64,000 bases of DNA, taken from an uncultured Dehalococcoidia bacterium. Lineage in GTDB: Bacteria > Chloroflexota > Dehalococcoidia > SZUA-161. This document shows, one piece after another, positions 22,461 to 49,650 of the stretch. The translations under genes were made by a program, and so were the position numbers. The notes under the pieces are model-generated. The model was not told where the DNA came from and did no database searches. It was given only the letters and a program-made list of their open reading frames with translations. The stretch's first letter is position 1, and each line of letters opens with the position of its first letter. The stretch is from contig CAZNOI010000003.1 of assembly GCA_964574685.1 (NCBI GenBank), forward strand, positions 53,408 through 117,407, read 5' to 3'.

Positions 22461-22510
22461 GACGTATCAATCGAATACCGCCCGTTTGCATGAGGGCAAG
22501 GGAGTCTGTG

Positions 22511-25500
22511 ATGACGCGCAAATCGAGAAGGACGACAAAGGGTAGCAGGATCGTGTTGGCCTGCGTGCTGACATTCGCTCTGCTGGTTGTCGGCCTGCCG
22601 GCGGCGAGCGCGGCGGTGCCCGGCGGACCATCTGAGGGAGATGCCGATCCTGCAGTCGACTCCGGCGGAGCGGAAGTGCTGGTGCTCGACTCTGATGGGT
22701 CCTGGACTGTCCTGGACGTGAAGGTACGTGCCGTTGATGAAGAGGAGACCCCGGCGGGCGGGCAGGTCTTCCAGCGATTGTCTATCGCCGGCCGAGAGAC
22801 TACGCTTGAGGTTGGCAAGCCGCAACTGCCCGCAATCAGGGAGTTGGTGGCAATACCGGATGGGGCGACTGTTACGGCGTCTGTCGTCGATTCATCCTTC
22901 ACAACCACTCGCGACTATCATGTTTTCCCCGTGCAGGAACCCGAGGTTGATGGGCAGCCCACGCCCGGCTTCACCATTGACAGCGAGTTCTATTCGATCG
23001 ACGCCTTCTACCCGAGAGACCTTCTCGAGGTGGATGAGCCCGGCATATGGCGCGACATCACCGTTGCAGGAGTGCAGATCAATCCGGTTCAGTTCAACCC
23101 CGCTACGGGTGAATTGCGGGTCTACGACCGCGTCCGGATCAGGCTGGACTATGCGGGCGGCAGCGTGGCTCCCAAGAAAGTAGCGCCTGCATTCGCGCGC
23201 ATGTATCAGAGCGCCATCCTGAACTACGACTCCCTGGACGTAAACGTGGACTACGGCTCATATGAAGACCAGGTAGGGACGCATGACGCCGCGGCCGCTC
23301 TTCCGGAAGTGGAAGGGTTGGGGCTTGACGGTACCCCCTATGATTCCTCGGTGAAGCTGCTCTCCCTCAGGCACGAGTCCTGCTCCGACTTCAGTACACT
23401 GTTGCCGCTGCTCGAGTGGCACAAGAGCGAAGGACTGCCATACATCTCGGCGGTATACCACTCGACCCCTACGGCAAGCAGCTTGAAGAGCACAATCGCG
23501 AGTTACTACGATGACTACCCCGAACTCGAGTACGTCCTGCTGGTGGGCGACACAGCGTACCTTCCCTGGCAGCAGAGCTGGGGGCCGAACGACACGCCGG
23601 GCGACCACTGGTATGCGTGCATCACGGGCGGCGCGACCCCCGACCTCTATGCGGACGTCGGTCTCGGACGGCTCTCGGTTACCAGTGACGCGCAGCTCCA
23701 GCAGCAGGTTGACAAGATACTCGACTATGCCAAGAGCCCACCGGCCGGAAGCTGGGTGAACCGTGCGATCCTTATGGCACATAAGGAAGCAGCTCCCGGC
23801 AAGTATCAGGGGTGCTGTGAAGACATACGAACCGCCACCTACAGCGATTCGTTCACCTTCTGGACGGACTACGGTGCGGCAGCCGCGCAGGGAGGCGACG
23901 ACGCTACGAACGCCGACGTTACGGCAGACTTGAACTCCGGCGTTGGGATTCTCAACTACAGAGGGCATGGCGGGGACGGCGACCCTTATGGGCCGCCGTA
24001 TGGCGAGTTCTGGGGAACCAACTGGAACACGTCATTCGAGGAATACACAGTCACTGACGCGCACGGCCTCACGAACGGCGACAACGCTCCGGTTGTCTTC
24101 AGCATATCGTGCACCAATGCCTGGCTGGATGCTGCCAATGAGGTGCTTGGCGAAGCGTTCGTGAGGGACAGCGATTCCGCCGTCGCATTCCTGGGGGCTT
24201 CCCGGCCTTCGTACACCACTCCGAATCACGAGTTCGACAAGAACCTGTTTGACGCCATAGGCAACGAGCATATCACCAGGCTGGGCTGGATACTGAACGA
24301 CGCCAACGCCGAGCTGGTGGCTGCGTACGGCTCAGGTTCCTACTATATGGACAACGTCAGGATGTACCTGTGGCTGGGCGACCCGGCTCTTGACCTCTGG
24401 ACGAGCAGCCCGCAGTCCCTGGTGGTCGACCATCCCGCTCAGGTAACAACAAGCATGACGGTAGCCGTGCAGGACGTCATGACCAACCCGGTGCCGAACG
24501 CGCTGGTCTGCCTGCACAAGTACGGCGATATATACGCGTACGCCTATACCAATACCATGGGCGAGGCGAGCTTCAGCTTCAATCCGAGCACCGACGGGAT
24601 GATGGATGTGGTTGTGACGAAGCACAACTACTACCCGTATGAGGGGCAGACAGAGGTCGTACCTCTGGAGAATGCCATAACCAACATCGCGTTCACCCCC
24701 TCCCCACCCGCCTCGCTATGCAACGGCGAGCATGTGGACATCTCGTTCGACTACTCGACCGACGAGGAAGACGGGGTCCGGATACAAATGACACCATTTA
24801 CTGAGGGCTCTCCTACCCCGGGTTACGGATGGAGCGGTTCGACAGTGTACCCGAAGGGCGAAGGAAGCGGTAGCACCTGGTTCACGATCCTCTCGGGTGA
24901 TACCGCCGTAGACCAGGTCAGGTTCCAGATGAAGACAGCCGACTGGAACACTGTGCTGATCGAGTTCTTTGTCCCGGTCGCCTATACATTCGGGCATTCA
25001 GTGCACGACACAACTATGGATCCCATATCGCCCGCCGACCTCATCTTCGGCGAGCACGTCGACATCGGTTTCGACTACTACACGTGTGAGACGGACGGGG
25101 TAGTGATCTTCGTGAAGCCCTATACGGGCGGGCCACCGACGCCCAACTACCTGGCAAGTGGCTCGGACGTGTACCCGAAGGGCAGCGGGACCGGAAGCGG
25201 GTGGTTCACCGTCACCTCGGGCGTCACGACCGTTGACCAGGTCCATGTTGAGATGATGACCGCCGACCAGACGACCACGCTTCTGGACTTCCTCGTGGAT
25301 GTCTCATACCAGTATGCGGGGCACCCGGATATATGGGTAGAGCCGACCGGTATCGAGGTCGAGTTGTACCCGGACTCCTACTCCAGCAGCATACTTGAGA
25401 TCGGAAATACGGGGGAGGGCGCCCTCGAATACAACATCGCGGACGTGGAGACTACCGGAGGGCCGTTCATCGAGTGGGTGGCCGTGACTCCGGACCCCCT

Positions 25501-28500
25501 TCCTGCCGGCGACCCCGGGACCCTGACGGCCGAGGTGCATGACCCCGACGGTCTCGGCGACATATCCTGGGTCAAATGGTGGGTGAACGAAAGCCCGACC
25601 GACGGGCTGCATATGTACGACGATGGGATGCACGGAGACGGCGCCGCCGGGGACGGCGTCTATGGGTCAAACGTCTACGGCGCCACGTTGTACGGTTCCG
25701 AGATAGGGATGACCTTCCAGGCGGGCGATTCGACCGGCAAACTTGGGCACAGGTCCTATGTCCTGTCGCTGGCCGACAGTGGACGTGGGGCGGCGGTCGG
25801 CCTTGGAGCCTCCGGCAGGGAGATGGTCGAGGCGGAGGATACGACGGAGGAGGATGCGGCACCGGGTGAGGAAGCGAACGACCAGGTATCATCTACGGGC
25901 TCGAATGTCGGGGACGCCTCGGATGCGCCCGGTTTCCCGGACATCCATTTCGACTATGATCTGCAGGCGGCTACAGGTGACATACAGTGCGTGGGCGTCG
26001 AGTTCGATGGGACGAACTTCTATGTTACGGGCGCCAACTCGGGCAGCCCCAACATGGTCTACGTGCTTGACCGTAAGGGCAACCCGGCAGGCAGCTTCGC
26101 CCAGGACCCCGCGTATTCAGCCTCGACGTGGGGTTGGCGTGATCTTGCCTGGGACGGAAGCTATCTCTACGGCAGCGAGAGCTCCAGCATAGTCCAGTTC
26201 GAGACCGACGGTACGGTTGTCGGCACGATACCCGGCCCCATCAGTCCATGCCGGGGTCTCGCCTACGATCCGGCCGGCGACCACTTCTGGACGGCGGGTT
26301 TCGGCACGAATGTATATGAGATAGACCGGTCAGGAACGGTCGTCAACGCGTTCTCGAACCCCTACAACGTCTACGGGCTGGCCTGGGACGATGTGTCTCC
26401 TGGCGGGCCGTGGCTCTGGGTCTTCGCCCAGGAAGGCTCTCCAGCGGTTACCGCATATCAGTTCGACCCGGTGGCGGGGGCGTACACGGGGCTGAGCTTC
26501 GTGAGCCAGGGCGAAGTCGCGGGCGGCGCCTGCTTCACTACGGAGCTGGAGCCCCCATATGGCATCCTGGCTGTAGTCAGCCAGGGATACCCCGATGCCC
26601 TCCTGGGGCATGAGATATGCCAGCTCGACTGCGATTGGCTGGACGAATGGCCGATGAGCGGCACTGTGCCGCTGAGCCAGACACCGGCGTACGACGAGAT
26701 CGAGGTCGGCATAGACAGTACAGGCCTCGCGCCCGGGGAATACACAGCCGAAGTGCACGTGGCCAACAACGATCCCTCGGGCAATCCGACGATTGTGCCG
26801 GTGAAGCTGACGGTCCTGCCGGAACCCAATATCTGGACGAACCCCGACGTGCTGCAGGTCGAGATGTTGCCGTATTCCGAGTGGTTGGGGACAGTCACGA
26901 TCGGCAACAGCGGTGACGGCACTCTGGACTACAACGTGGTCGATATCGAAACGACCGGCAGTCCATACTTCGAGTGGGTGACGCAGGCCCCCGACCCTCT
27001 TCCGTCTGCTTCAAGCGGGAAGATAGAGGCAATGGTCGGTGACCCGGACGGTCTGGCTGATATCGACTACGTCAAGGTATGGTTCACCGAGCATCCGTCG
27101 ATATGGACTTGGATGCTGGACGACGGCGTGGCTCCCGATGTCACAGCGGGGGACGGCGTCTATACCTGTGTGACGCCCGGAACGAAACCCAGCGAGGATT
27201 TCGGCCTGCTGCTTCAGGCCAGAGACATGGCCGGAAACCTCGGTCACACGTCGCTCGAATTCCATGTGGACTTCGGCGGCGGGCCGATGTCTTCGACCGC
27301 CAACCCCAGGGAGTGGGATGGCGGGGCGTGGAACATCGATATCGGCGAGCGTCCGAGGGCGGGCGACGGAGCAGGCAGTGGCGTAGCGGATGAAGTAGCG
27401 GCCCCGGCAGCTCCTGGGGCGGGCGCGGTGAGCGACGGTGAGGGCACCGACGCACCCGGCTTCTCCGACATCCGCTTCTCATATGACGTCGAAGGAGCTT
27501 CGGGCGATTATCAATGCCTCGGAGTCGAGTTCGATGGGACCAACTTCTACGTGACAGGCGGCAACTCCGGTGGAGGCGCCGGTGATCCGAACCAGGTTCA
27601 TATGTTTGACAGGGCCGGCACCTATGTCGGCTCGTTCCCTCAGGACCCGACGTACTCCACATCGAGCTGGGGCTGGCGTGACCTGGCGTGGGACGGCGCG
27701 TACCTGTACGGCAGTGAGAACTCGGACATCGTCCAGTTCGGGACCAACGGCACGGTGACCGGGACTATAGCCGGACCCATCAACCCCTGCAGGGGTCTCG
27801 CCTATGACCCGGCGACGGACCACTTCTGGACGGCTGGTTTCGGCACGGACATCTACGAGATAGACCGTTCGGGGATTGTGGTCAAGTCCTTCGTCAATAC
27901 CTACAACGTGTATGGGCTTGCGTGGGATGATGTCAGCCCCGGGGGGCCGTGGCTCTGGGTGTTCTCGCAGGATGGCTCTCCTGCCGCCACGGTGCGCCAG
28001 TTCGACCCGGTAACCGGCGTGTACACGGGTGTATCGTTCTCCAGCGTCGGGACCTACGCCGGGGGTGCCTGCTTCGTTACAGATGTCGAGCCGCAATACG
28101 GTATTCTGGTAGCCCTGAACCAGGGATACCCGGATATGCTGGTGGGGCATGAGATATGCCAACTGAACTGCCCATGGCTTGGCGCGGCACCCACGCCGGG
28201 AACCGTAGGGCCGGGCAGTATGGGAACCCTTGACGTGGTTGTGAATTCGTCCGGTCTGGATCGGGGCGAACACACCGCAGAGATGTACATCGAGAGCAAC
28301 GACCCGGATGAGGATCCCACGATAATCCCGGTACAGCTTACAGTGTTGCCCTCGCCTGACATAGACGTTGAGCCAAGATCAATCGACATAGAGCTGCCGC
28401 CCGATACGATTTGGAACGCACCCATAGATGTATCCAACGATGGGGATGACGGATCGACGCTCAAGTACCAGATGGTCGACACCGAGACAACGGGTGGACC

Positions 28501-31500
28501 GTTCATCAAGTGGGCGAAGTCGGTTCCCAATCCGATACCGGAGGGCGACGTCGGGGCCATCATGGCGGAAGTCATCGATCCTGATGGTTTAGCCGATGTC
28601 GACAGTGTCCGGTTCTGGGTCACGAAGAACCCCAGTGACTGGAACTACATGCACGACGATGGGGTGGCACCCGATCAGGTTGCCGGAGACGGCATATACA
28701 GCAGCACTGCCAATGGCGTCTCGATGTACGGTACGGAGTTCGGCGTGACGGTCGAAGCCGTCGACCTGGGCGGCCCCGTATGCCACATCACTCACGTGCA
28801 GAAGGTTGAATTGACTGACGATGGCAGCGGACAGTCGTTCGACAGCTACAGCGGGCGTTCGGCCCTTGATGCCGAAGGGGACATTGAGGTCCTGTACCAG
28901 CAGGAGGTAGCTGTCGCGGAGGGCGATGTCAACGCCGAGGGCGTGACCAGTGTAGTGAGAGCGGCCTATAGCTGGGGGGATGCTGATGGAGCGGGCCGCA
29001 GCATACTGGTGTACACGGATGACATGTTCGTCGAACCCGGACAGACTTACGTAGAGCTGGCGCTTCGCGAACTCGGGCTCGCGTACACATGCTACTACGA
29101 CGACTATGCTGGTTTCGGGGCAGCACTGACCGCTGGCACGTGGGACCTGGTCCTGGTCTCACACAACAACCGCTTCCAGTTCGGCGACTACTGGTCCGAG
29201 ATCGAAGACTACGTCAATGCGGGTGGCAAGGTCGTTATCGAGACTTTCGATATTGACGGTTCTCACAGTGAAGCGACCACGCTCTGGAATACACTGGGAG
29301 TTGCGCACTCCAGCGACATGGGCTCGGCCGAACCGCTGTACCGGTGGCAGCCGGCCCACCCGGTCTTCCAGGGCATTGAGAATCTGTCCGACCTGACGAC
29401 TTATACCGCCGAGTACAACGATAACGGCGACAAGTGTGATGCTGTATCACCGACCATAGCCGTCGGCGGCTTCGCGGCAGGCCCGACATCCGGCCAGGGC
29501 GGCATCTTCAGCGGGTCCATCGTGAACAGCTTTGTCATATCGAACTTCCGCTCTGACGACGATGGCGACGGGAAGCTGGACGCCGTCGAGCTGTGGAAGA
29601 ACGAGATCATGTACACCATGTTCGGTTCGGACTGCGACTGGCTGAGCGAGACCCCCACCGAAGGCTCCCTGGGGTACGGCATGTCGGACGAAGTGATGCT
29701 GAGCATCGACACTTCAGGGCTGGCCCTGGGTGAGTACTCGGCAGAGGTGTACGTGGCCGGCAACGACCTGAATGAAGGCGTGACGTTCGTGCCTGTCAGG
29801 CTCACTGTTGCGCCGCCGGTCGAAACAGGCAGTGTCCTCTTCGACGAGACACACTCGCCTGTGAATTCGAGTGAGGCGGCGATGAAGCACTGGGCCGAAC
29901 TGCTGAGAGCCTGGGGCTTCGTAGTGGACAGGGCAACGACAGTGCCTACTACATACGGTGAGCTGCTGGAAGGATACTGCGCGGTCATCATACCAGGCCC
30001 CACGGCCGACTACACGGAAGCTGAGATAGCAGCCCTGCAGGACTACGTTGACCACGGCGGCGGCCTGCTGATAACCGGCGAGTGGGGCGACTACGCTCAG
30101 ATGAGCGGGTTGTTCCCGGTGGTCAACGAGCTTGCGGCATCGTTCGACATGTGGTTCAACGATGACGCTGTGTGCGACTACACATACAACGACGGGAACG
30201 CGATGTGGCCGCTCATTCCCGACTTCGAAGCTTCTGTCGCCGGTGCGAACGTCGACGAGGCTGTCATGTACTTCGGGTGCTCGGTTGGCGGAAACGGGAC
30301 GGCCTTCCCGATCGCGTGGACTTACAGCTCGGCCTATGCCGCGACCGCAGACGCTGATGGGGAGATCGGTTCGGCGGGCACCGGGTACGCCCGAGGAGAG
30401 GCAGAAGACAGGAATGACTCTCCACCCACGAAGGAGGAGGCGCCGACTGAGGTACAGGACGGTATAGATGTATCGACCGGCGAGCCGGCCAGGTTCGGCT
30501 CCGAGTTCGTAGAGCTGAAACCTCTGGTGGAGGTCGATGGCGGGTATGACGTCCTGTGGGATCTGACGCACGGCGTCTACCTAGGCTACGAGCCTGGTGT
30601 TGATTACTCGAGCCTTGTCGCTCTGCTGGGCAGCGCCGGCTACAGTGTGGACACCACAACGGCCGGCGTGGAGAACGTCAATCTGAATGACTATGCTGTG
30701 CTCGTAGTATGCCTTGGGTCGTCATGGGACACGGCGTACACAGCGGGAGAGGTCGCAGCGATCGAAGCATTCGTCGAGAACGGCGGCGGCCTGCTGGTTC
30801 TGGGGGATAATGAGGGTTGCCCCAACTCGAACATCAATCCTGTACCGCAGGCCTTTGGCACAACATGCGGTCTGTCGACGCTATCCCCGACCGACGTTTA
30901 CGTATCGGATATGGACGAACACCCGATCTTTGAGGGCGTCTCCGAGTTCTATCTCAGAGCGGCCGGGGAGGTTGACGGCATATCACCGTCTCAGGAGATG
31001 GCATGGACGCCGATGGATGCGGGAGAACCCGTCGCGACAGTTGCCACCCAGGGTAACGGCAGGATCGTTGCGCTGGGCGACTTCAATCTGTGGCAGGACG
31101 AGCACCTGGCCAAGTCTCAGAACCAGTTGTTCGCGGAGAACACGTTCAACTGGCTGGCCGAGCCCTCACAGCCCGGCCCCCCGGTCATGGCCGCTTCGGT
31201 GTTCGGAGCAGGTCGTGCCATGATTATCGGCGACGGTAACCTGTTCGACTACCTCGACTACGACGAAGACAGCCCGTCGGCCTTGTACGAGTACGATAAC
31301 CAGAAGCTCGCACTCAACATCATCGACTGGCTGTGTCAGCCTAGACCCGATCTGGTGATCGAGGAGAAGTGGGAAGAGCCAACCGGGCGGATCAAGCATC
31401 TGCATTCGTTCGATGACCCGCCTTTGTATCCCGGCAGGCCGATAGAGGAGCCCCTCGGAACCGGCTGGCACGAACTCTACCCCGAATACTGCAATAGATA

Positions 31501-32761
31501 CGCGATAGACGGGTGGATAGAGCCCAGCCCGGATGGTGTTCTCAGCCCGGGAGACATCGTGTCTCTGGGCGGTGTGGACCACCATGTGGGAGACCTGACC
31601 GCCACCATGTTCGTCACGCCTGAGGGTGGCGATCAGATTGCACTCGAGTACATCGAGGGATACGAGTACGTGGCCGGTGCGATGAGCGACCCGGAGGGAA
31701 CGTACTGGTACAGTATTCACCCTCATGCATTTGATGACTACCTGATCGCCAGGTGGAAGGACGCATCGCCGGCAGGCCTCAGCGCGGGTGACCTTATTCT
31801 ACTCACCGATGTGGAGACCGGAGCGGAACTTACGTGCGACGTTGATGAGGTGGCCTGGGACCTCGTGGTCAGCCCCGTCCTCGACGAGATGCCGGGCACA
31901 TACCGGGTCTGCTACCAGGTAGCGAACATAGGTAACGCTGCTGTACCGGCCGGTCACTCGGTGACACTCTATGTGGATGAGGCGCCGGTGGAGCACATGG
32001 TGGTGCCGGTTGACCTCGGGCCGGGGGGCCGATACACCGACTGCTTCAGGACGATTGTCGAGTGCACCCCCAGCGAGGACCTGGTCGTCGTCTGCGCCGA
32101 CAACTACGAGCAGGTGGTTGAGGCGGACGAGGTCAACAACTGCACGGAGAACATCTACGAATGCCCCTGCGAGCCCGCCATCGATGTGCAGAAGACTGTC
32201 TGGGATGACTGCGGCGAGAAATGGGTGAAGATTGCCTGCGTCCCGATCGAATCAGCGGCAACGTTCCGGATTACCATCGAGAACACCGGCGACTGCTGTG
32301 ACCTGCTGTACATGGAGGTAACCGACTGGCTGCCGACCCGGACGTCGTACGTGCCCGGCAGCGCGACCGTGAACGGCATCCCGTGGGAGCCTTCGGGAAT
32401 GAGTCCGCTGGGATGGAGCCTCGAGTTGGCGCCGGTACCTCCCGGAGGGAACGTAACCCTGGTGTTCGACGCCACGGTCGACGAGTGGAGCGCCGATATT
32501 TTCGGCAACCTGGTTGAAGTGGAGGCCTGGTGCGAGGGCACCGGCATTTCCGCCTCAGGCAGTGACGAGGCGGCGCTGCAGCCGTTTATACCCGGCGATG
32601 CGAACATGAACGGCGCTGTGAACATGCAGGACGTGACTTACACGGAGTTGATAATTCTCGGCTACCTTGACCCGACCTGCGGTGCGGATGCGAATCTGGA
32701 CTGCACTATCAACATGGGAGACGTGACCACCATCGAGTTGATGATCCTGGGCTATCTGTGA
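22511..32761 (+). CDS. giant secreted multidomain surface protein: gingipain-like C25 peptidase domain, repeated modules, CARDB, DUF11, C-terminal dockerin
   Basis: Signal peptide. C25-like motifs YVLLVGDTAYLPW, ADVGLGRLSV, NYRGHGG, VFSISCTNAW. Triplicated beta-sandwich-like module and duplicated about 300-aa module. ThuA/GATase1-like stretches (VIIPGP...GGGLLITGEWGD). CARDB (YRVCYQVANIGNAAVPAGHSVTLYVDE). DUF11. Two dockerin repeats DANMNGAVNMQD / DANLDCTINMGD. Confidence 0.85.
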   Translation: MTRKSRRTTKGSRIVLACVLTFALLVVGLPAASAAVPGGPSEGDADPAVDSGGAEVLVLDSDGSWTVLDVKVRAVDEEETPAGGQVFQRLSIAGRETTLEVGKPQLPAIRELVAIPDGATVTASVVDSSFTTTRDYHVFPVQEPEVDGQPTPGFTIDSEFYSIDAFYPRDLLEVDEPGIWRDITVAGVQINPVQFNPATGELRVYDRVRIRLDYAGGSVAPKKVAPAFARMYQSAILNYDSLDVNVDYGSYEDQVGTHDAAAALPEVEGLGLDGTPYDSSVKLLSLRHESCSDFSTLLPLLEWHKSEGLPYISAVYHSTPTASSLKSTIASYYDDYPELEYVLLVGDTAYLPWQQSWGPNDTPGDHWYACITGGATPDLYADVGLGRLSVTSDAQLQQQVDKILDYAKSPPAGSWVNRAILMAHKEAAPGKYQGCCEDIRTATYSDSFTFWTDYGAAAAQGGDDATNADVTADLNSGVGILNYRGHGGDGDPYGPPYGEFWGTNWNTSFEEYTVTDAHGLTNGDNAPVVFSISCTNAWLDAANEVLGEAFVRDSDSAVAFLGASRPSYTTPNHEFDKNLFDAIGNEHITRLGWILNDANAELVAAYGSGSYYMDNVRMYLWLGDPALDLWTSSPQSLVVDHPAQVTTSMTVAVQDVMTNPVPNALVCLHKYGDIYAYAYTNTMGEASFSFNPSTDGMMDVVVTKHNYYPYEGQTEVVPLENAITNIAFTPSPPASLCNGEHVDISFDYSTDEEDGVRIQMTPFTEGSPTPGYGWSGSTVYPKGEGSGSTWFTILSGDTAVDQVRFQMKTADWNTVLIEFFVPVAYTFGHSVHDTTMDPISPADLIFGEHVDIGFDYYTCETDGVVIFVKPYTGGPPTPNYLASGSDVYPKGSGTGSGWFTVTSGVTTVDQVHVEMMTADQTTTLLDFLVDVSYQYAGHPDIWVEPTGIEVELYPDSYSSSILEIGNTGEGALEYNIADVETTGGPFIEWVAVTPDPLPAGDPGTLTAEVHDPDGLGDISWVKWWVNESPTDGLHMYDDGMHGDGAAGDGVYGSNVYGATLYGSEIGMTFQAGDSTGKLGHRSYVLSLADSGRGAAVGLGASGREMVEAEDTTEEDAAPGEEANDQVSSTGSNVGDASDAPGFPDIHFDYDLQAATGDIQCVGVEFDGTNFYVTGANSGSPNMVYVLDRKGNPAGSFAQDPAYSASTWGWRDLAWDGSYLYGSESSSIVQFETDGTVVGTIPGPISPCRGLAYDPAGDHFWTAGFGTNVYEIDRSGTVVNAFSNPYNVYGLAWDDVSPGGPWLWVFAQEGSPAVTAYQFDPVAGAYTGLSFVSQGEVAGGACFTTELEPPYGILAVVSQGYPDALLGHEICQLDCDWLDEWPMSGTVPLSQTPAYDEIEVGIDSTGLAPGEYTAEVHVANNDPSGNPTIVPVKLTVLPEPNIWTNPDVLQVEMLPYSEWLGTVTIGNSGDGTLDYNVVDIETTGSPYFEWVTQAPDPLPSASSGKIEAMVGDPDGLADIDYVKVWFTEHPSIWTWMLDDGVAPDVTAGDGVYTCVTPGTKPSEDFGLLLQARDMAGNLGHTSLEFHVDFGGGPMSSTANPREWDGGAWNIDIGERPRAGDGAGSGVADEVAAPAAPGAGAVSDGEGTDAPGFSDIRFSYDVEGASGDYQCLGVEFDGTNFYVTGGNSGGGAGDPNQVHMFDRAGTYVGSFPQDPTYSTSSWGWRDLAWDGAYLYGSENSDIVQFGTNGTVTGTIAGPINPCRGLAYDPATDHFWTAGFGTDIYEIDRSGIVVKSFVNTYNVYGLAWDDVSPGGPWLWVFSQDGSPAATVRQFDPVTGVYTGVSFSSVGTYAGGACFVTDVEPQYGILVALNQGYPDMLVGHEICQLNCPWLGAAPTPGTVGPGSMGTLDVVVNSSGLDRGEHTAEMYIESNDPDEDPTIIPVQLTVLPSPDIDVEPRSIDIELPPDTIWNAPIDVSNDGDDGSTLKYQMVDTETTGGPFIKWAKSVPNPIPEGDVGAIMAEVIDPDGLADVDSVRFWVTKNPSDWNYMHDDGVAPDQVAGDGIYSSTANGVSMYGTEFGVTVEAVDLGGPVCHITHVQKVELTDDGSGQSFDSYSGRSALDAEGDIEVLYQQEVAVAEGDVNAEGVTSVVRAAYSWGDADGAGRSILVYTDDMFVEPGQTYVELALRELGLAYTCYYDDYAGFGAALTAGTWDLVLVSHNNRFQFGDYWSEIEDYVNAGGKVVIETFDIDGSHSEATTLWNTLGVAHSSDMGSAEPLYRWQPAHPVFQGIENLSDLTTYTAEYNDNGDKCDAVSPTIAVGGFAAGPTSGQGGIFSGSIVNSFVISNFRSDDDGDGKLDAVELWKNEIMYTMFGSDCDWLSETPTEGSLGYGMSDEVMLSIDTSGLALGEYSAEVYVAGNDLNEGVTFVPVRLTVAPPVETGSVLFDETHSPVNSSEAAMKHWAELLRAWGFVVDRATTVPTTYGELLEGYCAVIIPGPTADYTEAEIAALQDYVDHGGGLLITGEWGDYAQMSGLFPVVNELAASFDMWFNDDAVCDYTYNDGNAMWPLIPDFEASVAGANVDEAVMYFGCSVGGNGTAFPIAWTYSSAYAATADADGEIGSAGTGYARGEAEDRNDSPPTKEEAPTEVQDGIDVSTGEPARFGSEFVELKPLVEVDGGYDVLWDLTHGVYLGYEPGVDYSSLVALLGSAGYSVDTTTAGVENVNLNDYAVLVVCLGSSWDTAYTAGEVAAIEAFVENGGGLLVLGDNEGCPNSNINPVPQAFGTTCGLSTLSPTDVYVSDMDEHPIFEGVSEFYLRAAGEVDGISPSQEMAWTPMDAGEPVATVATQGNGRIVALGDFNLWQDEHLAKSQNQLFAENTFNWLAEPSQPGPPVMAASVFGAGRAMIIGDGNLFDYLDYDEDSPSALYEYDNQKLALNIIDWLCQPRPDLVIEEKWEEPTGRIKHLHSFDDPPLYPGRPIEEPLGTGWHELYPEYCNRYAIDGWIEPSPDGVLSPGDIVSLGGVDHHVGDLTATMFVTPEGGDQIALEYIEGYEYVAGAMSDPEGTYWYSIHPHAFDDYLIARWKDASPAGLSAGDLILLTDVETGAELTCDVDEVAWDLVVSPVLDEMPGTYRVCYQVANIGNAAVPAGHSVTLYVDEAPVEHMVVPVDLGPGGRYTDCFRTIVECTPSEDLVVVCADNYEQVVEADEVNNCTENIYECPCEPAIDVQKTVWDDCGEKWVKIACVPIESAATFRITIENTGDCCDLLYMEVTDWLPTRTSYVPGSATVNGIPWEPSGMSPLGWSLELAPVPPGGNVTLVFDATVDEWSADIFGNLVEVEAWCEGTGISASGSDEAALQPFIPGDANMNGAVNMQDVTYTELIILGYLDPTCGADANLDCTINMGDVTTIELMILGYL

Positions 32762-32797
32762 TCGGTAAGATAAGTTAAGTTAGAGAAAGCGTTGTTG

Positions 32798-32826
32798 TTG
32801 TCAAGTTAGTTAGGTTATGGTAAACT
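32798..32826 (+). promoter_or_regulatory. sigma70-like promoter (TTGTCA-17-TAAACT) for the cohesin/PEP-CTERM gene
   Basis: ttgtca at 32798-32803, taaact at 32821-32826, RBS GAGGAGG at 32834-32840, ATG at 32849. Confidence 0.3.
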
Positions 32827-32848
32827 GCAGCGCGAGGAGGTAGCAGCC

Positions 32849-33871
32849 ATGGGTAAGTTCCGACTACTGGCGGTGCTGGGGATAGTAGTGGCGCTTGTGG
32901 CGGCTGTTGTGCCCGGGCACGCACTGGCGGATGGGGCTGTCAGCGTCGTTGCCCCCGGGGAGGTTCCGGAAGGGGGTACTTTCACGGCTTATATCACTGT
33001 CGACTGGGTGGAGGACCTCGATTCCGGTCAGTTCGAGCTTGGATACGACCCGAACGTCATTGAAGTGACGCATATTGTCTCGGGTATCAGACACGGCACG
33101 CTGCTGCCTTCGGGGAACACAACAGTCACGGCGAGTCAGCCCGACACGGGCATACTGCGGGTGGTGGTGAACACAGCAAGTCATCCGGCTACAGGAGGTG
33201 TAACCGGGACCGGCTGCCTTGTCGAGATCGACTTCGATGTGCTGGGCGAGTACTGCGATACCAGCGTGCTGGATCTCGCCCCTCCTACGGGTTTCCAGAA
33301 CGGGATGTGGGATTACCTGGCCTTCGAGATTCCCACGACTTGGTCAGACAGCGCCGTGCACGTCTGCCAGCCGCGGACCCTGGTATCGGGGGTAATCGAT
33401 AGCGGTTTTGCTCCCACCGACGACTTCAACCCGGGCGAAACTGTGGCTGTCTATGGCTACGGGTTCCTGCCGGGTGAGCCGTATGAGCTGTATGTTCAGC
33501 CGTACACAATGGGCGTGAACGTTGCCGAGGGAGATGCACTGGTCGCCGGTGCCGATCCCAGTGCAGTGTCTCCGCAGCCGATCGTGTCGAACATGTACGG
33601 TGAAATAGGCCCGGTGCCTGTGTGGATCATACCGGCAACCGGTCAGGAGGGAACCTACTGGGAGATAGTAGCCGACGATGCGGGGGCCTCATGTGTCGGA
33701 GACGGACTGTACAATGCCGCTGAGGATGGACTCGACGCCATGGCCCTCGACGAGGAGGGCTTCTATGTGGTGCCCGAGGCCACGACGCTTATCCTGCTGT
33801 CACTTGGCCTGGTCAGCGTGGGAGGGTACTACTTCATACGCAGGCGCAGAGTCTCGTCAATCGAGGCTTAG
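32849..33871 (+). CDS. cohesin-domain protein with PEP-CTERM-type C-terminal sorting signal
   Basis: Signal peptide. Cohesin-like GGTFTAYITVDW...SGQFELGYDPNVIEVTHIVSG...GILRVVV...CLVEIDFDV. C-terminus VVPEATTLILLSLGLVSVGGYYFIRRRRV (PEP-like motif, TM helix, Arg cluster). Confidence 0.55.
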   Translation: MGKFRLLAVLGIVVALVAAVVPGHALADGAVSVVAPGEVPEGGTFTAYITVDWVEDLDSGQFELGYDPNVIEVTHIVSGIRHGTLLPSGNTTVTASQPDTGILRVVVNTASHPATGGVTGTGCLVEIDFDVLGEYCDTSVLDLAPPTGFQNGMWDYLAFEIPTTWSDSAVHVCQPRTLVSGVIDSGFAPTDDFNPGETVAVYGYGFLPGEPYELYVQPYTMGVNVAEGDALVAGADPSAVSPQPIVSNMYGEIGPVPVWIIPATGQEGTYWEIVADDAGASCVGDGLYNAAEDGLDAMALDEEGFYVVPEATTLILLSLGLVSVGGYYFIRRRRVSSIEA

Positions 33872-33898
33872 AGACCAGATATCAGCTTGACGATCCAG

Positions 33899-33935
33899 GG
33901 AGACGGCGAGAGGCCTCGCCGTCTCTTTCTCTTTT
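33899..33935 (+). terminator. rho-independent terminator
   Basis: GAGACGGCGAGaggCCTCGCCGTCTC followed by TTTCTCTTTT, 28 bp after the cohesin gene stop. Confidence 0.7.
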
Positions 33936-33995
33936 CCCGGCCGTTCTTTGACCTCGAATTGGGTGGCCGGTATCATGGTAGCTGACCGGTGAGTC

Positions 33996-34811
33996 ATGGA
34001 GTTCATCCGTAGATACGCTCTTGTCATCGGCGGTCTGCTTCTGGTCGTAGTCGTCGTGGTGCTGGCAACGGTGCCGGCCGATGTGCTCGCTCTTCAGACC
34101 ACCTTCATCAGCAGCGAGTTGCACCACACCGGCGATGACCAGGTGCGCGTCCGAACCAAGCTCGACCTGGGGGATGCCGAGCACATGAGCAGCATTCCGA
34201 AGAAGCTGGCGAGCTGGGAAGGCCTTGACTTCGGATCATCTGAGGTTGTCGAACAACTGGGGGCTGAAGTCGTCCTGCTTCGCACGTATCTCTATTCCGA
34301 GAGGTACCTTCCCGTTCATTTCATAGTCGTCCAGAGCAACGACCCGACCTCATTCCACCCCCCTCCGCTGTGCTACCGTTCGTGCGGCTGGGACATCCTG
34401 GAGGAGGGAAGAGAGGAGATAACTGTCGCAGATGCGAGCTGGACAACGGGGACGGAGCCGATCTCCCTTGGCGCGAGGAAGCTGGTAGTGTCGCAGGCGC
34501 GTTCGGAAGGGGACGCCGAACGGCAGGTCGTGCTGTACGTCTACGTGAAGGGGCGGCTCTTCGAAGATAGCGTCACAATGGTGGAGACAGCCGCCGAGGT
34601 GCCTTCATCGGGCTCAACGGATGATACGCTTGAAGCGACAGCGACCTTTCTGGGTGACATACTGCCATACATGTTCGAGGCCGAGGAGGACCAGGGCGGC
34701 GAGATACTCGCTTCGCGCCTCGCCGGATCATGGGGTGGTATAGCGCTAATGACCGTGCTGGTCCTGGGCCCAGTTGCGCTCATGGTCTATCCCCGCCTCA
34801 GGCGTTCCTGA
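33996..34811 (+). CDS. exosortase-associated EpsI-like membrane protein (paralog 1)
   Basis: N-terminal TM; central region ...DDQVRVRTKLDLGDAEH...W.G.D......LGA.VVLLRTY...; C-terminal TM. Paralogous to the next gene and adjacent to the exosortase. Confidence 0.4.
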   Translation: MEFIRRYALVIGGLLLVVVVVVLATVPADVLALQTTFISSELHHTGDDQVRVRTKLDLGDAEHMSSIPKKLASWEGLDFGSSEVVEQLGAEVVLLRTYLYSERYLPVHFIVVQSNDPTSFHPPPLCYRSCGWDILEEGREEITVADASWTTGTEPISLGARKLVVSQARSEGDAERQVVLYVYVKGRLFEDSVTMVETAAEVPSSGSTDDTLEATATFLGDILPYMFEAEEDQGGEILASRLAGSWGGIALMTVLVLGPVALMVYPRLRRS

Positions 34812-34820
34812 CGACTGCAG

Positions 34821-35672
34821 ATGGCTTTCTACAGGCGCTACGCAGTGCTTCTGTCAGCCATAGCTCTCGTGCTCATCCTCGTGGTGCTGTTGACCTCGCC
34901 GGCGTCCACACTCTCCCCCGGTGGTACTTTCATCGGCAGCGACTTGACCGGCACCGGTGGCGACGAGGTCCACGTGAGGACGAAGATAGACCTCAGCGAC
35001 GCGGAAGCACTGAGCGAGTTCCCGAAGCAGTTCGGGGTCTGGCAGGGCGAGGACGCATCGCAGTCCGAAATCGATGATATGCGTGAGACGCTTGGCGCTG
35101 ATGTCGTCCTGCTGCGCGACTATGAGAGAGCAGGGCTCTATCAACCGTTGGACGTTCTGGTCATGCAGGCCGAGACCGATGTCAGCTTCCGGCCGCTGGC
35201 TACGTGCTACGTAGCTCATGGCTACGACGTGGTGGAGGAGGGTAAGGAGACAGTATCGATGAGTGGCAATGGCTGGACGGAGGGGCAGGACCTCAGCCTG
35301 CCGCTCAGCAGGATGGTTGCTGTCAGACAGCGCGAAGGTGAGGTATACCAGCGGCTTGTTGTGCTGTACTTCTACTTGAGGGGCAATCAACTCAGCGGCG
35401 ATGCTGTAACCATGCTACGGGTGCAGGCTCTGGCGACTCCGGCGGGTTCCTACTCAGGGATCCTGAGCATGCAGAAGGACTTCATCGCTGAGGCTGTACC
35501 TCTCCTCTTCGAGCCCGATGAGCGAGCGGGCTGGAGACCGCTTGCAGTGAGGCTGGCGGGCGTGGGGGCGGGAGGGTACCTGGCTATGGCGCTGCTGCTT
35601 CTAATCCCCGTGGCGATCGCGGTCTACCCGAGGCTGAGAAGTGAAGAGAGACAGACTGGCGCCACGAGTTGA
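34821..35672 (+). CDS. exosortase-associated EpsI-like membrane protein (paralog 2)
   Basis: Same architecture as 33996-34811 (...GDEVHVRTKIDLSDAEA...LGADVVLLRDY...). Confidence 0.4.
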   Translation: MAFYRRYAVLLSAIALVLILVVLLTSPASTLSPGGTFIGSDLTGTGGDEVHVRTKIDLSDAEALSEFPKQFGVWQGEDASQSEIDDMRETLGADVVLLRDYERAGLYQPLDVLVMQAETDVSFRPLATCYVAHGYDVVEEGKETVSMSGNGWTEGQDLSLPLSRMVAVRQREGEVYQRLVVLYFYLRGNQLSGDAVTMLRVQALATPAGSYSGILSMQKDFIAEAVPLLFEPDERAGWRPLAVRLAGVGAGGYLAMALLLLIPVAIAVYPRLRSEERQTGATS

Positions 35673-36513
35673 CATAATACTTTCACGTGTCAAGAAGAGC
35701 CTGGTGCTGCTCCTCGTCCTGGTGGTTGTGGGTGTGTTCTATTGGCCGACCTTGCGGTGGCTGGGAAACGCATGGCTCTCCAATGACTACTACAGCCACG
35801 GCTTCCTGGTGCCCATCGTCGCCGGGTTTTTCGCGTGGCAGAACCGGAAGGCGCTTGTTGGAAGTGAACCTTCGATCACAGGTGTCTTCGCGCTCTCGGT
35901 AGCCGCCATCCTCTATGTCTTCGGAATCGTTCGAGACGAGCGCCTTCTGACTGGCCTTTCGCTGATTGTGCTCGTCGGCGGGATTGTGCTGTCCATCTGG
36001 GGTCTGAGGCGAGGAAGGGTGATGGCCTTCCCTATCTTCTTCCTTCTGTTCATGATTCCGTTTCCATTCGTGCAGGACCTGGGGTTCACGCTCCAGGGCG
36101 TGTCTGTGGAGTCATCTGCCTGGCTTCTCCGGCTGTTCGGCATGTCAGTCGACGTCGTGGGTCGGGAGTTGCACTTGGGCGACCTCGCCTTCACAGTCGG
36201 GCTGCCCTGCAGCGGCATCAACACGCTGATTGCACTACTGGCGTTGACAGCCGTCTACACCTACCTGCTGGCTGGTTCCTGGAGAAGAAGGGCATTCCTG
36301 TTCATCCTCGCTTTCCCGATTGCCATAGCGGCGAACATCCTGCGAGTCACGTCTATCGTGCTGGTTGCACGCTTCGGCAATGTCGACGTGGCTACCGGCG
36401 TCTATCACGATGTATCAAGTCCTCTCTTCTTCGCACTGGCCTTCCTTTGCATTGTGTTGCTCGCGCGATTGATGAAGTGTAAACTTGGCTTCGGGGTTCC
36501 AGGGCAAGAGTGA
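35641..36513 (+). CDS. exosortase/archaeosortase-family transpeptidase
   Basis: Polytopic membrane protein with conserved-looking VGLPCSGINTLIAL (Cys) and AANILRVTS (Asn/Arg) motifs. Confidence 0.6.
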   Translation: MKRDRLAPRVDIILSRVKKSLVLLLVLVVVGVFYWPTLRWLGNAWLSNDYYSHGFLVPIVAGFFAWQNRKALVGSEPSITGVFALSVAAILYVFGIVRDERLLTGLSLIVLVGGIVLSIWGLRRGRVMAFPIFFLLFMIPFPFVQDLGFTLQGVSVESSAWLLRLFGMSVDVVGRELHLGDLAFTVGLPCSGINTLIALLALTAVYTYLLAGSWRRRAFLFILAFPIAIAANILRVTSIVLVARFGNVDVATGVYHDVSSPLFFALAFLCIVLLARLMKCKLGFGVPGQE

Positions 36514-37340
36514 TAGACCTTATCGTCGCTGTATTCCTGACGCTGCTTTCCATCCCGGTTGTTCTGCTCACGGACGGACCCTTCAGAGTCGTTCTCCCAG
36601 TAATCGTGCTTCTGCTCCTGCCCGGATACTGCCTCATGGCTGCTCTCTACCCCCGAAATGGGAGCATGCAGGGTCCCCAGAAGCTTGTGCTCAGTATCGT
36701 ATCCAGTCTGGCGATCGTACCTCTTACGATGCTGGCGCTCAACTTCACTCCCTGGGGGCTGGGCCTGGTTTCCGACACAGCGGCCATGTCGACCGTAATC
36801 CTGATACTGGCGACGACCGCCTTCGTGCGCCGGGCTCGTCTGCCGCGTGAAGAGCGCCCGCACTTTACGCGGCCGCGCATACGGCGTCCACAGCTTGACG
36901 GGGGGACGAAGGCGGATATGGTGATCTCCCTGGTACTGGTAATGGCTATTGCCGGCGCAGGCTGGGGACTCCACTACGCCGTTACCACTCCCAGCCACGA
37001 AGATGCGTTCACCGACTTCTATCTGCTCGGCGGTGACGGTCTCATAGGTGACTACCCCACCGAGCTTGCGCCGGGTGAGTCCGCCAATGTGACAGTCGGA
37101 GTTGTCAATCACGAGAACGAGGATGTGGACTACAGCGTCGATCTCCTTCTCGATGGACAGCCGATGAAGCACTACGGGCCGGTACTGCTCGCGGATGAGG
37201 AGGAGTGGAGCAGGGTAATACACATAGCCATCAGTGAAGAGGGCGAGAGGCACCGGGTTGAGTTCATCCTGCGCAGGGGCAGTGAGACCGAGCCTTACCG
37301 GTCGCTGCACCTCTGGATAGACGTGAGAGAGCGGCAATGA
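36510..37340 (+). CDS. DUF1616-like membrane protein
   Basis: Four N-terminal TM helices plus C-terminal beta-rich soluble domain. Weak family call. Confidence 0.35.
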   Translation: MIDLIVAVFLTLLSIPVVLLTDGPFRVVLPVIVLLLLPGYCLMAALYPRNGSMQGPQKLVLSIVSSLAIVPLTMLALNFTPWGLGLVSDTAAMSTVILILATTAFVRRARLPREERPHFTRPRIRRPQLDGGTKADMVISLVLVMAIAGAGWGLHYAVTTPSHEDAFTDFYLLGGDGLIGDYPTELAPGESANVTVGVVNHENEDVDYSVDLLLDGQPMKHYGPVLLADEEEWSRVIHIAISEEGERHRVEFILRRGSETEPYRSLHLWIDVRERQ

Positions 37341-38086
37341 GCCTTGCGCGAGTCCTGGTCCTCTGCATTGCCGCCCTGGGAGCGGCCGAGGCGGTCACGA
37401 TCTTCGTGTCACAGGTTGGCGGTGTCGTGATGCACATGGCACTGCTGGCCGCCCTGGTTGTTCTGGCGGTTCGTTGGCGCGGCGAGTCCTCGCACAGGCT
37501 GATGATCGCGCTGGGTCTGGCACCACTCACGAGAATACTCAGCCTTTCGATGCCTCTTTCCGAGATCGCTGATGTCTACTGGTACGTGATAATCGCGGTC
37601 CCGCTCCTTGTCGGGGTATTCGCAGTGATTCGCACGCTCGACCTCGGTCCGGACCAGGTCGGGCTCACGGCTCGGGCAATGCCGGTGCAGATACTCATTG
37701 GCCTGTCCGGTGCAGCCATTGGCGTTGTCGACTACCTCATCCTGGAGCCCGATGCGCTGATTCCCGCGCTGGACTGGCGCGAGATGATAGTACCGGTGAT
37801 TGTCCTCATGCTGGCTACCGGGCTGGCCGAAGAGTTGGCATTTCGCGGCGTGATGCAACGTGCTGCCACCGAGGTCTTGGCCCGCTGGGGCTGGGTTGCG
37901 GTAGCGATGGTGTACGCCCTGCTACAGATGGGGCACGGCTCTCTGTTCCATGGCCTGCTGGCGTTCGGTGTGGCTCTCTTCTTCGGCTGGACAGTGAGGA
38001 GGACAGGCTCGATCGTCGGGGTCAGCCTGTCGCACGGTCTGGCAAATGTGGGGCTGTATCTCGTTTACCCGTTCGTGTTCACCTAG
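37337..38086 (+). CDS. CPBP-family intramembrane metalloprotease (CAAX protease/Abi family)
   Basis: TM protein with EELAFRG (motif 1 EExxxR), FxxxH-like motifs (LFHGLLAFG) and a SHGLAN tail. Confidence 0.75.
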   Translation: MSLARVLVLCIAALGAAEAVTIFVSQVGGVVMHMALLAALVVLAVRWRGESSHRLMIALGLAPLTRILSLSMPLSEIADVYWYVIIAVPLLVGVFAVIRTLDLGPDQVGLTARAMPVQILIGLSGAAIGVVDYLILEPDALIPALDWREMIVPVIVLMLATGLAEELAFRGVMQRAATEVLARWGWVAVAMVYALLQMGHGSLFHGLLAFGVALFFGWTVRRTGSIVGVSLSHGLANVGLYLVYPFVFT

Positions 38087-38387: not shown

Positions 38388-38903
38388 ATAACCCCGATTG
38401 CGCACGTAGGCATCGCCCTTCCGGCTGCCTATGTCCTGAGGCTGAACCTCGTGATCGTGGCCGTCTGCGCGATCTTGCCGGACCTCGTGGACAAGCCGCT
38501 ATGGGCGCTCGGCATCGGGCCGGGCAGGTATGTCGGCCACTCGCTGGTCTTCGTCCTGGGCGTAGCCCTCGCGGCGGCGCTCGTGAAGCGTTCGTACGGT
38601 CTCGCGGCACTCGCCGGCGGCCTGTCTCATCTCCTTCTGGACTGGGTGGCAACCGGTCCGGTCGTCCCGTGGTTCTACCCGGTGGTGGACTACGGATTCC
38701 CTCCCCCAGCCTTCGAGCCTTCAGGTTTCTTCAGCAGGCTGTCAGGCTCGGTGCAGCAGTACTTCTTGCTCGATGTCGGGAACCAGTTGGTATGGGTAGC
38801 CGCCGTCTTCGCGGCGGCGCTTGTCGTGATCGGACTGCGCAGGCTCCATACGTCAAGGCGGAGGAGAGATGGGGTAGCCGTGAGCGAACCGGAGGAGTTC
38901 TAG
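38388..38903 (+). CDS. membrane-bound metal-dependent hydrolase (DUF457/YdjM-like); start codon uncertain
   Basis: ...PIAHVGIALPAAY...VAVCAILPDLVDKPLW...HSLVFVLG...LSHLLLDW. Frame is open back to 38328 with RBS GGAGAAGGAGG at 38371-38382 but no canonical start. Confidence 0.45.
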   Translation: MTPIAHVGIALPAAYVLRLNLVIVAVCAILPDLVDKPLWALGIGPGRYVGHSLVFVLGVALAAALVKRSYGLAALAGGLSHLLLDWVATGPVVPWFYPVVDYGFPPPAFEPSGFFSRLSGSVQQYFLLDVGNQLVWVAAVFAAALVVIGLRRLHTSRRRRDGVAVSEPEEF

Positions 38904-40190
38904 GTGGTGAGCCGGCTGTCAGTGGAAATCGGGAAGAGGTGGCGCGATTCGCTATTCCGGAACTCGCTGTACCTGATGGCGAGCTCCGCCGTCACCGCCG
39001 TGGTCGGCTTCCTGTTCTGGATGCTGGCTGCCAGGCTCTATCCGGCGGAAGATGTCGGCATCGCTTCGGCCGTCATCTCTGCGATGATGCTGATCGCGCT
39101 CCTCGCAACACTCGGCCTTGACTACGGCATAGTCAGGTTCCTGCCGGGCGCGGGCAGAGACAAGAATGACACAATCAACACCTGCCTCACACTGACCGGT
39201 CTGGCCGCGATCGCGATCTCCGTCGTCTTCGTCCTCGGTGTCGGGGTCTGGTCACCGGCGCTGTCGTTCCTGCGCGACAACTGGGCCCTGTTCCTCGCGT
39301 TCGTGGGGTTCTGCGCTGTCGGCACTGTATCCCTGCTCATTGGCAGGGCCTTCGTGGCCGAACGCAGGGCTGCCTACACCCTGCTGCAGGGTAGCATCTT
39401 CAACGTCTCCAGGCTCGGGCTGGTTGCAGGCCTGTCGGCGAGCTTCGCGGCGTTCGGCATCTACAGTTGCTGGGGCCTTGGCCATGCGATGGCTCTCGTC
39501 GTAGCCGCCTTGCTGCTGCTTCCCCGCCTGAGAACCGGATACCGGCCGATCCCGGCTATCAGGTCGGCAGTGGTGAGAAGGCTCTTGCGCTTCTCACTCG
39601 CCAACTATGTCACTGCGCTCCTGTGGACCGCGCCGTCCTTCATCCTGCCGCTGATGGTCGTGAACCGGCTCGGCGCAGAGGCGACCGCCTACTTCTACAT
39701 CGCCTGGTCGATCGCCAATGTCCTCTTCGTCGTGCCGCTGGCCACCTCGTTCACCCTGCTTGCCGAGGGCGCGCACGACGAGACCAGGCTCGCTGGCGAT
39801 GCGAAGAAGACCATCGCGCTCACCCTGTCGGTCATCGTTCCACTGATAGTCGTCCTGGCTGTCGTGGGGGACAGGGTCCTCAACGCCTTTGACCCCGCGT
39901 ACGCCGAGAACGGCTTCGACCTGTTGCGTCTCCTGAGCATCTCGGCGGTTCCCCTGAGCGTGAACTTCGTTTACTTCGGGGTGCTCAGGGTCCGGATGAG
40001 GATGCGGCCCGTTCTCCTCCTCAGCGGCTTCATAGCTGTGGCCACGCTCACGGCGAGCTGGTTCCTGCTGCCCGAAATGGATGTGCTCGGCCCCGGCGTC
40101 GCCTGGTTCGCCAGCCAGGGGATCGTTGCCGTACCGGTGTTGCTCTGGTCGCTGCGGGGTCTGCGGAGCGGCGCTAGCGGATCATCCTGA
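38904..40190 (+). CDS. polysaccharide biosynthesis/export flippase-like (Wzx/MOP family) membrane protein
   Basis: Twelve or more TM segments and an N-terminus SLFRNSLYLMASSAVTAVVGFLFWMLAARLY typical of oligosaccharide flippases. Confidence 0.55.
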   Translation: MVSRLSVEIGKRWRDSLFRNSLYLMASSAVTAVVGFLFWMLAARLYPAEDVGIASAVISAMMLIALLATLGLDYGIVRFLPGAGRDKNDTINTCLTLTGLAAIAISVVFVLGVGVWSPALSFLRDNWALFLAFVGFCAVGTVSLLIGRAFVAERRAAYTLLQGSIFNVSRLGLVAGLSASFAAFGIYSCWGLGHAMALVVAALLLLPRLRTGYRPIPAIRSAVVRRLLRFSLANYVTALLWTAPSFILPLMVVNRLGAEATAYFYIAWSIANVLFVVPLATSFTLLAEGAHDETRLAGDAKKTIALTLSVIVPLIVVLAVVGDRVLNAFDPAYAENGFDLLRLLSISAVPLSVNFVYFGVLRVRMRMRPVLLLSGFIAVATLTASWFLLPEMDVLGPGVAWFASQGIVAVPVLLWSLRGLRSGASGSS

Positions 40191-48859: not shown

Positions 48860-49531
48860 CTATTTGGGTGCCCTCACCCGCCTCACACCGACATAGCCGA
48901 CCAGGCCCAGAAGACCGAGCCCCAGCAGGGCAACGGTAGCGACCTCCGGCGTTGGATAGCCGGGGTCCATATGCGGCGAACGGAGCGATGACTCTCCGTC
49001 AGTGCTTATCATGTGTGGATTCGTGTCCGTGTTGCAGACCTCGAGCGCCAGGTAGTCCCCCTGAAGAATGGTCGCGGACTCCGCCTGAAGCTCGATGATA
49101 ACGGCATTGTAGCCCTGGTCGAAGGTAAGGAAGGTCTCGGTGGTCGTCGGTATGTCATACCACTGCTCGAGATCGGTATCCCAGCCCCCTATGTGCACTT
49201 CCCACTCGTCGAGGGACTCGGGATCAGGCTCCCCGATCTCGTACTCATCGATCCTCAGCTCGATGACCCATGCCCCGCCGGGGAACGTGACGTCGCACAC
49301 GGCCGCGTTCTCCGCGAGCCATGTCTTGCACCCACCGGCGCCGATTGTTACCCAGCCCGCCTGAGCGCCCCATGCCTTCTCCATGACCGAGAACGGGGAA
49401 CCGCAACTGTGCGGCGCGCCGTCCAGGTACCACAACTGGGACGCGGTTGCGCCGACCGCCGCGGGCATCGCGACCAGTATCGCGGCTATGAGCAGGGTAG
49501 CTGCAAGTACCCCGGACCGGGACCACTTCAT
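48860..49531 (-). CDS. secreted PEP-CTERM protein
   Basis: Signal peptide MKWSRSGVLAATLLIAAILVAMPAAVGA. C-terminus PTPEVATVALLGLGLLGLVGYVGVRRVRAPK (PEP motif, TM helix, Arg-rich tail). RBS GGAGG before ATG 49531. Confidence 0.6.
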   Translation of the reverse strand: MKWSRSGVLAATLLIAAILVAMPAAVGATASQLWYLDGAPHSCGSPFSVMEKAWGAQAGWVTIGAGGCKTWLAENAAVCDVTFPGGAWVIELRIDEYEIGEPDPESLDEWEVHIGGWDTDLEQWYDIPTTTETFLTFDQGYNAVIIELQAESATILQGDYLALEVCNTDTNPHMISTDGESSLRSPHMDPGYPTPEVATVALLGLGLLGLVGYVGVRRVRAPK

Positions 49532-49621
49532 TACGTACCTCCAAACGGCGCATGGTTTGGGTGCAACCCACGGAGCGAACCACGCACACGTAAGCATACA
49601 AGGTCGCACACAACCGTTGCC

Positions 49622-49650
49622 ATTAAAGCACACGGGTAAACTGCTGTCAA
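49622..49650 (-). promoter_or_regulatory. sigma70-like promoter (TTGACA-17-TTTAAT) for the PEP-CTERM gene
   Basis: Reverse complement of 49622-49650 reads TTGACAgcagtttacccgtgtgcTTTAAT. Confidence 0.4.

Follow-up and report, generated by a model that had tools for sequence, protein, structure and literature searches.

The 64 kb window, i.e. the whole stretch of DNA analysed here, derives from an uncultured bacterium of the Chloroflexota, likely of the Dehalococcoidia, and encodes a giant secreted protein, a small cohesin-bearing protein and an exosortase cluster, one after the other on the + strand. A sequence-only reading of this DNA had placed four elements in the region, a dockerin, a cohesin, a PEP-CTERM-type sorting tail and an exosortase, and all four were confirmed at the claimed positions to within a few bases. 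Module identities, folds, the presence of catalytic residues and gene order are established here.

The giant protein (3,423 aa; 22490..32761, + strand; Pfam and NCBIfam matches) starts with a signal-like segment followed by a C25 propeptide (aa 73-247; Propeptide_C25, 78.9 bits) and a gingipain-like Peptidase_C25 domain (aa 305-636, nt 23402-24397, + strand; PF01364, 181.3 bits). Membership in the Peptidase C25 (gingipain) family is given both by the HMM score, which passes the cutoff, and by the presence of a His/Cys dyad. In the alignment with gingipain R (1cvr) the His of NYRGHGG pairs with that of NYTGHGS and the Cys of SISCTN with that of DVACVN, and we take the aligned His and Cys of the C25 domain to be the catalytic residues. 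Other modules are three choice-of-anchor-X domains, DUF4350/ThuA-like domains, CARDB, DUF11 and, at the C-terminus, the dockerin.

This compact type-I-like dockerin (aa 3367-3423; 32588..32758, + strand), identified by profile and repeat structure, comprises the final 57 residues, IPGDANMNGAVNMQDVTYTELIILGYLDPTCGADANLDCTINMGDVTTIELMILGYL, with the stop codon directly after. It consists of two 24-residue segments, identical at 15 of 24 positions and joined by the short linker LDPTCGA, each having a 12-residue EF-hand-like loop (DANMNGAVNMQD and DANLDCTINMGD) and then a helix (VT..EL.ILGYL after each loop). The C-terminus hence has the tandem loop-plus-helix build that defines type-I dockerins, namely two tandem segments of ~22 residues with the loop D-x-N/D-x-N/D-G-x-I/V-x-x-x-D followed by a helix. 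The Ca-ligand positions D1, N3, N/D5, N9 and D12 are retained in both loops, and a Cys replaces the canonical Gly in loop 2. In a six-frame translation of the window, the loop pattern was matched by this ORF alone.

The sequence-only reading had suggested an HMM search with Cohesin, Dockerin_1 and PEP-CTERM models, and for the dockerin it gave a sub-threshold match: the isolated module scores 14.3-15.0 bits (E=0.03-0.05) against the Pfam Dockerin_1 model PF00404, which is under the cutoff of 22.9. Because its own score is below the Pfam cutoff the assignment needed indirect support. Seven of the eight best matches of the isolated dockerin among PDB sequences are dockerins (E=0.1-0.3), and a profile of the compact subfamily (A3) finds the solved type-I dockerin 4fl4_A at E=2e-10 as well as other solved dockerin modules and enzymes that carry one (E down to 1e-4). 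Moreover, all 15 of the 15 members of the compact subfamily match PF00404, the best at E=1.3e-14. These relationships support the view that the giant protein ends in a divergent, compact type-I dockerin, as had been claimed.

The gene directly after the giant ORF encodes the cohesin anchor protein (340 aa; 32849..33871, + strand; HMM matches and structure model). A Sec-type signal peptide is predicted at aa 1-27 (32849..32929, + strand) from a modelled hydrophobic helix (aa 3-20) and the hydropathy profile, with the cleavage site GHALA|DG assigned by eye. It precedes a cohesin module (aa 29-173; 32933..33367, + strand), for which Pfam Cohesin PF00963 gives 30.7 bits on the full protein (E=4e-7, aa 37-134) and 33.1 bits on the isolated domain at a gathering cutoff of 24.1. 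The cohesin-type beta-sandwich (jelly-roll) fold was modelled with confidence, so that the earlier description of the next gene product as a secreted protein with an N-terminal cohesin holds. There is no second cohesin within the window, nor a second dockerin, and the two modules are separated by 87 nt. The cohesin is followed by a ~125-aa beta-sandwich module without a prior name, which we refer to as the "stalk" (aa 177-300; 33377..33748, + strand; structure model). It is modelled as beta strands (pLDDT ~76-91) and matched no Pfam family. Of 153 proteins examined from a representative search, 49 carry it C-terminally, behind diverse N-terminal domains, and stalk and tail occur together on many other proteins.

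The C-terminus of the cohesin protein, VVPEATTLILLSLGLVSVGGYYFIRRRR, carries a PEP-CTERM-type sorting tail (aa 308-334; 33770..33850, + strand) that reads VPEATT, then the hydrophobic stretch LILLSLGLVSVGGYYFI, then RRRR, with six residues beyond; a transmembrane helix is modelled at aa 311-334. The protein accordingly combines the N-terminal signal peptide and the tripartite C-terminal tail expected of PEP-CTERM proteins. The TIGR02595 PEP_CTERM model scores 17.8 bits on the full protein and 23.2 bits on the tail alone (cutoff 16) and is the top scorer among all sorting-signal models tried on the tail, while the Pfam model PF07589 is borderline (18.6 bits for the full protein, 20.9 for the fragment; cutoff 20.7). 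The canonical Pro-Glu-Pro is absent from the tail, which has PEA instead, as the sequence-only reading had noted. The motif consensus of the family is PE[A/G/L/V][L/T/P/M]T, with the PELPT form in some members only. Across 18 divergent members (24-73% identity) P309, E310, L316, G320 and G326 never vary, and T313 hardly does.

Another secreted protein of the window (48860..49633, - strand) likewise has a PE-type tail, YPTPEVATVALLGLGLLGLVGYVGVRRVR; TIGR02595 gives it 15.2 bits, just below the cutoff of 16. In a different locus (L022), the gene immediately before an exosortase homologue encodes a protein with 36% identity to it (E=2e-45). The window protein is probably a further exosortase substrate.

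The cohesin gene is separated from the exosortase cluster by a terminator-like 14 bp hairpin followed by a T-rich run (33897..33928, + strand; folding z-score -1.5) and a promoter-like site (33948-33976, + strand; consensus match only). Given this hairpin, co-transcription of the cohesin gene and the cluster is not implied. The cluster opens with two EpsI-like (DUF3485) proteins, one at 33996..34811 (+ strand; PF11984, 33.2 bits; under the NCBIfam EpsI cutoff) and one at 34821..35672 (+ strand; PF11984, 30.8 bits). These are followed by the exosortase gene (35641..36513, + strand; PF09721, 187 bits), 1.77 kb beyond the cohesin stop codon, the true start probably being a few codons downstream of 35641. 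The protein passes the family models TIGR02602 (147.5 bits; cutoff 105.55) and TIGR04178 (signature, 64.3 bits; cutoff 23) and belongs to a subtype without a name: XrtA (TIGR03109) gives 175.7 bits against a cutoff of 208, and XrtW, XrtD, XrtV, XrtB and the remaining subtype models are all far under their cutoffs. Three orthologues share the motifs GLPC190SG, NILR235V and VYH256D without variation, and Cys, Arg and His constitute the exosortase triad (Haft; bioRxiv 10.1101/2023.06.07.544157). Downstream are genes for a DUF1616 membrane protein (36510..37340, + strand; PF07760, 219.6 bits), a CPBP/Rce1-like intramembrane protease (37337..38086, + strand; PF02517, 50.9 bits), a YdjM-family membrane protein (38451..38903, + strand; conserved in orthologous loci) and a polysaccharide flippase (Polysacc_synt/MatE; 38904..40190, + strand; Pfam). 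DUF1616 adjoins the exosortase in all orthologues of the window and in four of six sampled homologue loci (one copy being truncated to 73 aa), and the CPBP gene accompanies it in all six.

In orthologues the gene order giant dockerin protein, cohesin anchor, two EpsI, exosortase, DUF1616 and CPBP is kept, the cohesin proteins of the orthologues with this order being 72% and 57% identical to that of the window. A cohesin cassette lies beside an exosortase in five divergent lineages (L001, L005, L015, L020 and L021). It is present at two of the six sampled exosortase homologues (49-56% identity), L020 and L021 (~54%), where there is an extra cohesin-dockerin adaptor and the dockerin sequence types differ. 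The remaining four lack the cassette, and the exosortase is therefore not dedicated to it. In L012 and L013 distant family members adjoin papain-like proteases bearing Dockerin_1, and the exosortase homologue of L022 directly follows genes for three proteins whose tails are of the PVPELPAG type. PEP-CTERM signal and exosortase thus co-occur in the window and in the same five lineages, with PE-type tails in L022. The synteny in five lineages supports the suggestion that the cognate exosortase is encoded 1.8 kb downstream of the cohesin gene, as do the PE-type tails encoded just before homologous exosortases elsewhere.

We propose that this locus encodes a two-part, cellulosome-style surface display of the giant protease, anchored via the exosortase pathway, and give this reading a probability of roughly 60%. 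Judging from their N-terminal signal-like segments, both the giant protease and the cohesin protein would be exported by Sec, after which the C-terminal helix and the basic cluster would hold the 340-aa cohesin protein in the membrane. The exosortase (Cys190/Arg235/His256) and its EpsI-like partners would then recognise VPEATT, remove the helix and transfer the protein to a lipid or envelope acceptor, leaving a surface cohesin raised on the beta-sandwich stalk. The dockerin of the giant protease would bind this cohesin in a Ca2+-dependent manner and so tether the protease to the cell, and in related lineages a cohesin-plus-dockerin adaptor placed between enzyme and anchor might give a hierarchical assembly. 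We infer the cohesin-dockerin binding from the identity of the modules, their adjacency and the conserved gene order, while cleavage and anchor transfer of the cohesin protein are presumed by analogy with ArtA/PGF-CTERM and with the PEP-CTERM proteins of floc formers; what is said of the nature of the anchor and of the protease substrate is likewise presumptive. To our knowledge, exosortase cleavage and anchoring have been reconstituted biochemically for no bacterial PEP-CTERM protein.

Alternatively, the cohesin protein could be a plain bitopic (type-I) membrane protein whose helix is permanent and never cleaved by the exosortase, with the dockerin still bound. A transmembrane helix followed by RRRR suffices for stop-transfer anchoring, among the related cohesins of the representative search many have motif-less tails of this transmembrane-plus-basic kind, and LPXTG_anchor and Loki-CTERM score weakly on the tail via that part alone. 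This we consider unlikely, since the invariance of the five residues and near-invariance of T313 down to 24% identity is unexpected for a generic anchor; in addition, TIGR02595 is the best sorting model and above its cutoff, and exosortases adjoin the cassette in five lineages and PE-type tails elsewhere. Equally improbable in our judgement is that the cohesin does not pair with the adjacent dockerin, their targets lying elsewhere or the dockerin-like tail being a Ca-binding stabiliser, with adjacency reflecting co-regulated surface proteins. Sequence does not reveal which dockerin a cohesin binds, the dockerin is divergent, 64 kb is only part of the genome, and the additional cohesins and dockerins in L020 and L021 make pairings ambiguous there. 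Against this stand the presence of exactly one neighbouring module of each kind in the window, the recurrence of the pairing of dockerin-protease and cohesin-anchor in the unrelated protease families C25 and C1, and the conservation of the dockerin in orthologues (88-93%), which exceeds that of the whole cohesin protein (57-73%).

Myxosortases are CPBP enzymes acting on C-terminal sorting signals (bioRxiv 10.1101/2023.06.07.544157; PMC11980579). Comparable processing of the tail by the CPBP/Rce1-like protease, in place of the exosortase, would fit with the presence of this protease in all six sampled loci and with weak matches to MrtJ, MrtX and MrtS (E=1e-6 to 1e-5); the scores are, however, far under all myxosortase cutoffs, known myxosortase signals carry an invariant motif Cys that the VVPEATT tail lacks, and the model that the tail does match is PEP-CTERM, all of which makes such processing very unlikely. 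Decay of the modules into non-binding relics, in a cassette kept for other reasons, might be read from the sub-threshold dockerin score and the Cys-for-Gly exchange, but is scarcely credible given that every Ca-ligand position is retained, that the dockerin is far less diverged in orthologues than other parts, and that the structure model of the cohesin fold is confident.

On the preferred reading of exosortase-anchored display, we tentatively suggest, at somewhat less than even odds, a wider scheme for uncultured Chloroflexota, many of which, probably monoderm and with an S-layer, would have a dedicated system of this kind. In these, an exosortase of the unnamed subtype together with EpsI-like, DUF1616 and CPBP proteins would install cohesin "sockets" on portable anchors of beta-sandwich plus PE..T tail, into which giant C25 proteases and, in some lineages, adaptor scaffoldins would plug via compact dockerins. 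If true, this would represent a cellulosome analogue for proteolysis, the first concrete molecular role of a PEP-CTERM protein, as scaffoldin, and an archaeosortase-like exosortase in a bacterium that lacks an outer membrane, the modules being apparently common to methane-cycling archaea as well.

In a literature search we found no paper linking cohesins with exosortases, and exosortase anchoring would be a route so far undescribed for cohesins. The sequence-only reading had called the surface-display design unusual; relative to the literature it is, but not in sequence space, because the cassette is recurrent in uncultured Chloroflexota. Among anchoring scaffoldins of cellulosomes, SdbA and OlpB of C. 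thermocellum have SLH domains and ScaE of R. flavefaciens uses LPXTG/sortase. In contrast to these modes (summarised in PMC9012536), the present protein has a PEP-CTERM-type tail and an adjacent exosortase, and its single cohesin gives a stoichiometry of 1:1; the cargo is a protease and the host belongs to the Chloroflexota, whereas cellulosomes carry glycoside hydrolases and are found in Clostridia. Closer in cargo is "Ca. Stygibacter" (Cloacimonadota), also a non-cellulolytic lineage, for which a cellulosome-like complex has been proposed; dockerins are present there on peptidases, a gingipain-like C25 peptidase among them, and the complex is suggested to break down polypeptides at the cell surface (PMC8542988). 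That organism is diderm and has a 3,755-aa multi-cohesin scaffoldin with a T9SS C-terminal domain, unlike the 340-aa single-cohesin protein with an exosortase signal described here. Non-cellulosomal cohesin-dockerin modules are also known from archaea, e.g. A. fulgidus (PDB 2xdh) and ANME archaea (PMC9012536, PMC5244752). The archaeal relatives encountered here have plain transmembrane anchors or PGF-motif tails that score below the PGF-CTERM cutoff, and for the archaeal modules an exosortase link is so far undescribed.

With known PEP-CTERM/exosortase systems (XrtA, EpsH/EpsI and the Zoogloea floc protein PepA; bioRxiv 10.1101/2023.06.07.544157) the locus shares the tripartite tail, the signal peptide, a Cys/Arg/His exosortase, EpsI-like partners, a flippase and glycosyltransferases. 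It differs in having PE[A/G/L/V]xT instead of PEP, in reaching no named-subtype cutoff, in the DUF1616 and CPBP proteins alongside, in its Chloroflexota host and in a substrate whose function, a cohesin, is recognisable. The best mechanistic analogy is the S-layer glycoprotein of Haloferax, where ArtA, a homologous enzyme, removes the PGF-CTERM helix and a lipid anchor is attached (bioRxiv 10.1101/2023.06.07.544157; PMC6098224), although motif and enzyme subfamily differ and that archaeal system is without a cohesin. Finally, the giant protease shares with gingipains the C25 catalytic domain with its His/Cys dyad and, as predicted here, retention at the surface; it is ~8x as long as the aligned 435-aa gingipain R chain (1cvr), and whereas gingipains are attached covalently to A-LPS through their CTD by the T9SS sortase PorU (PMC7468200), its attachment is predicted to be non-covalent, through dockerin and cohesin.

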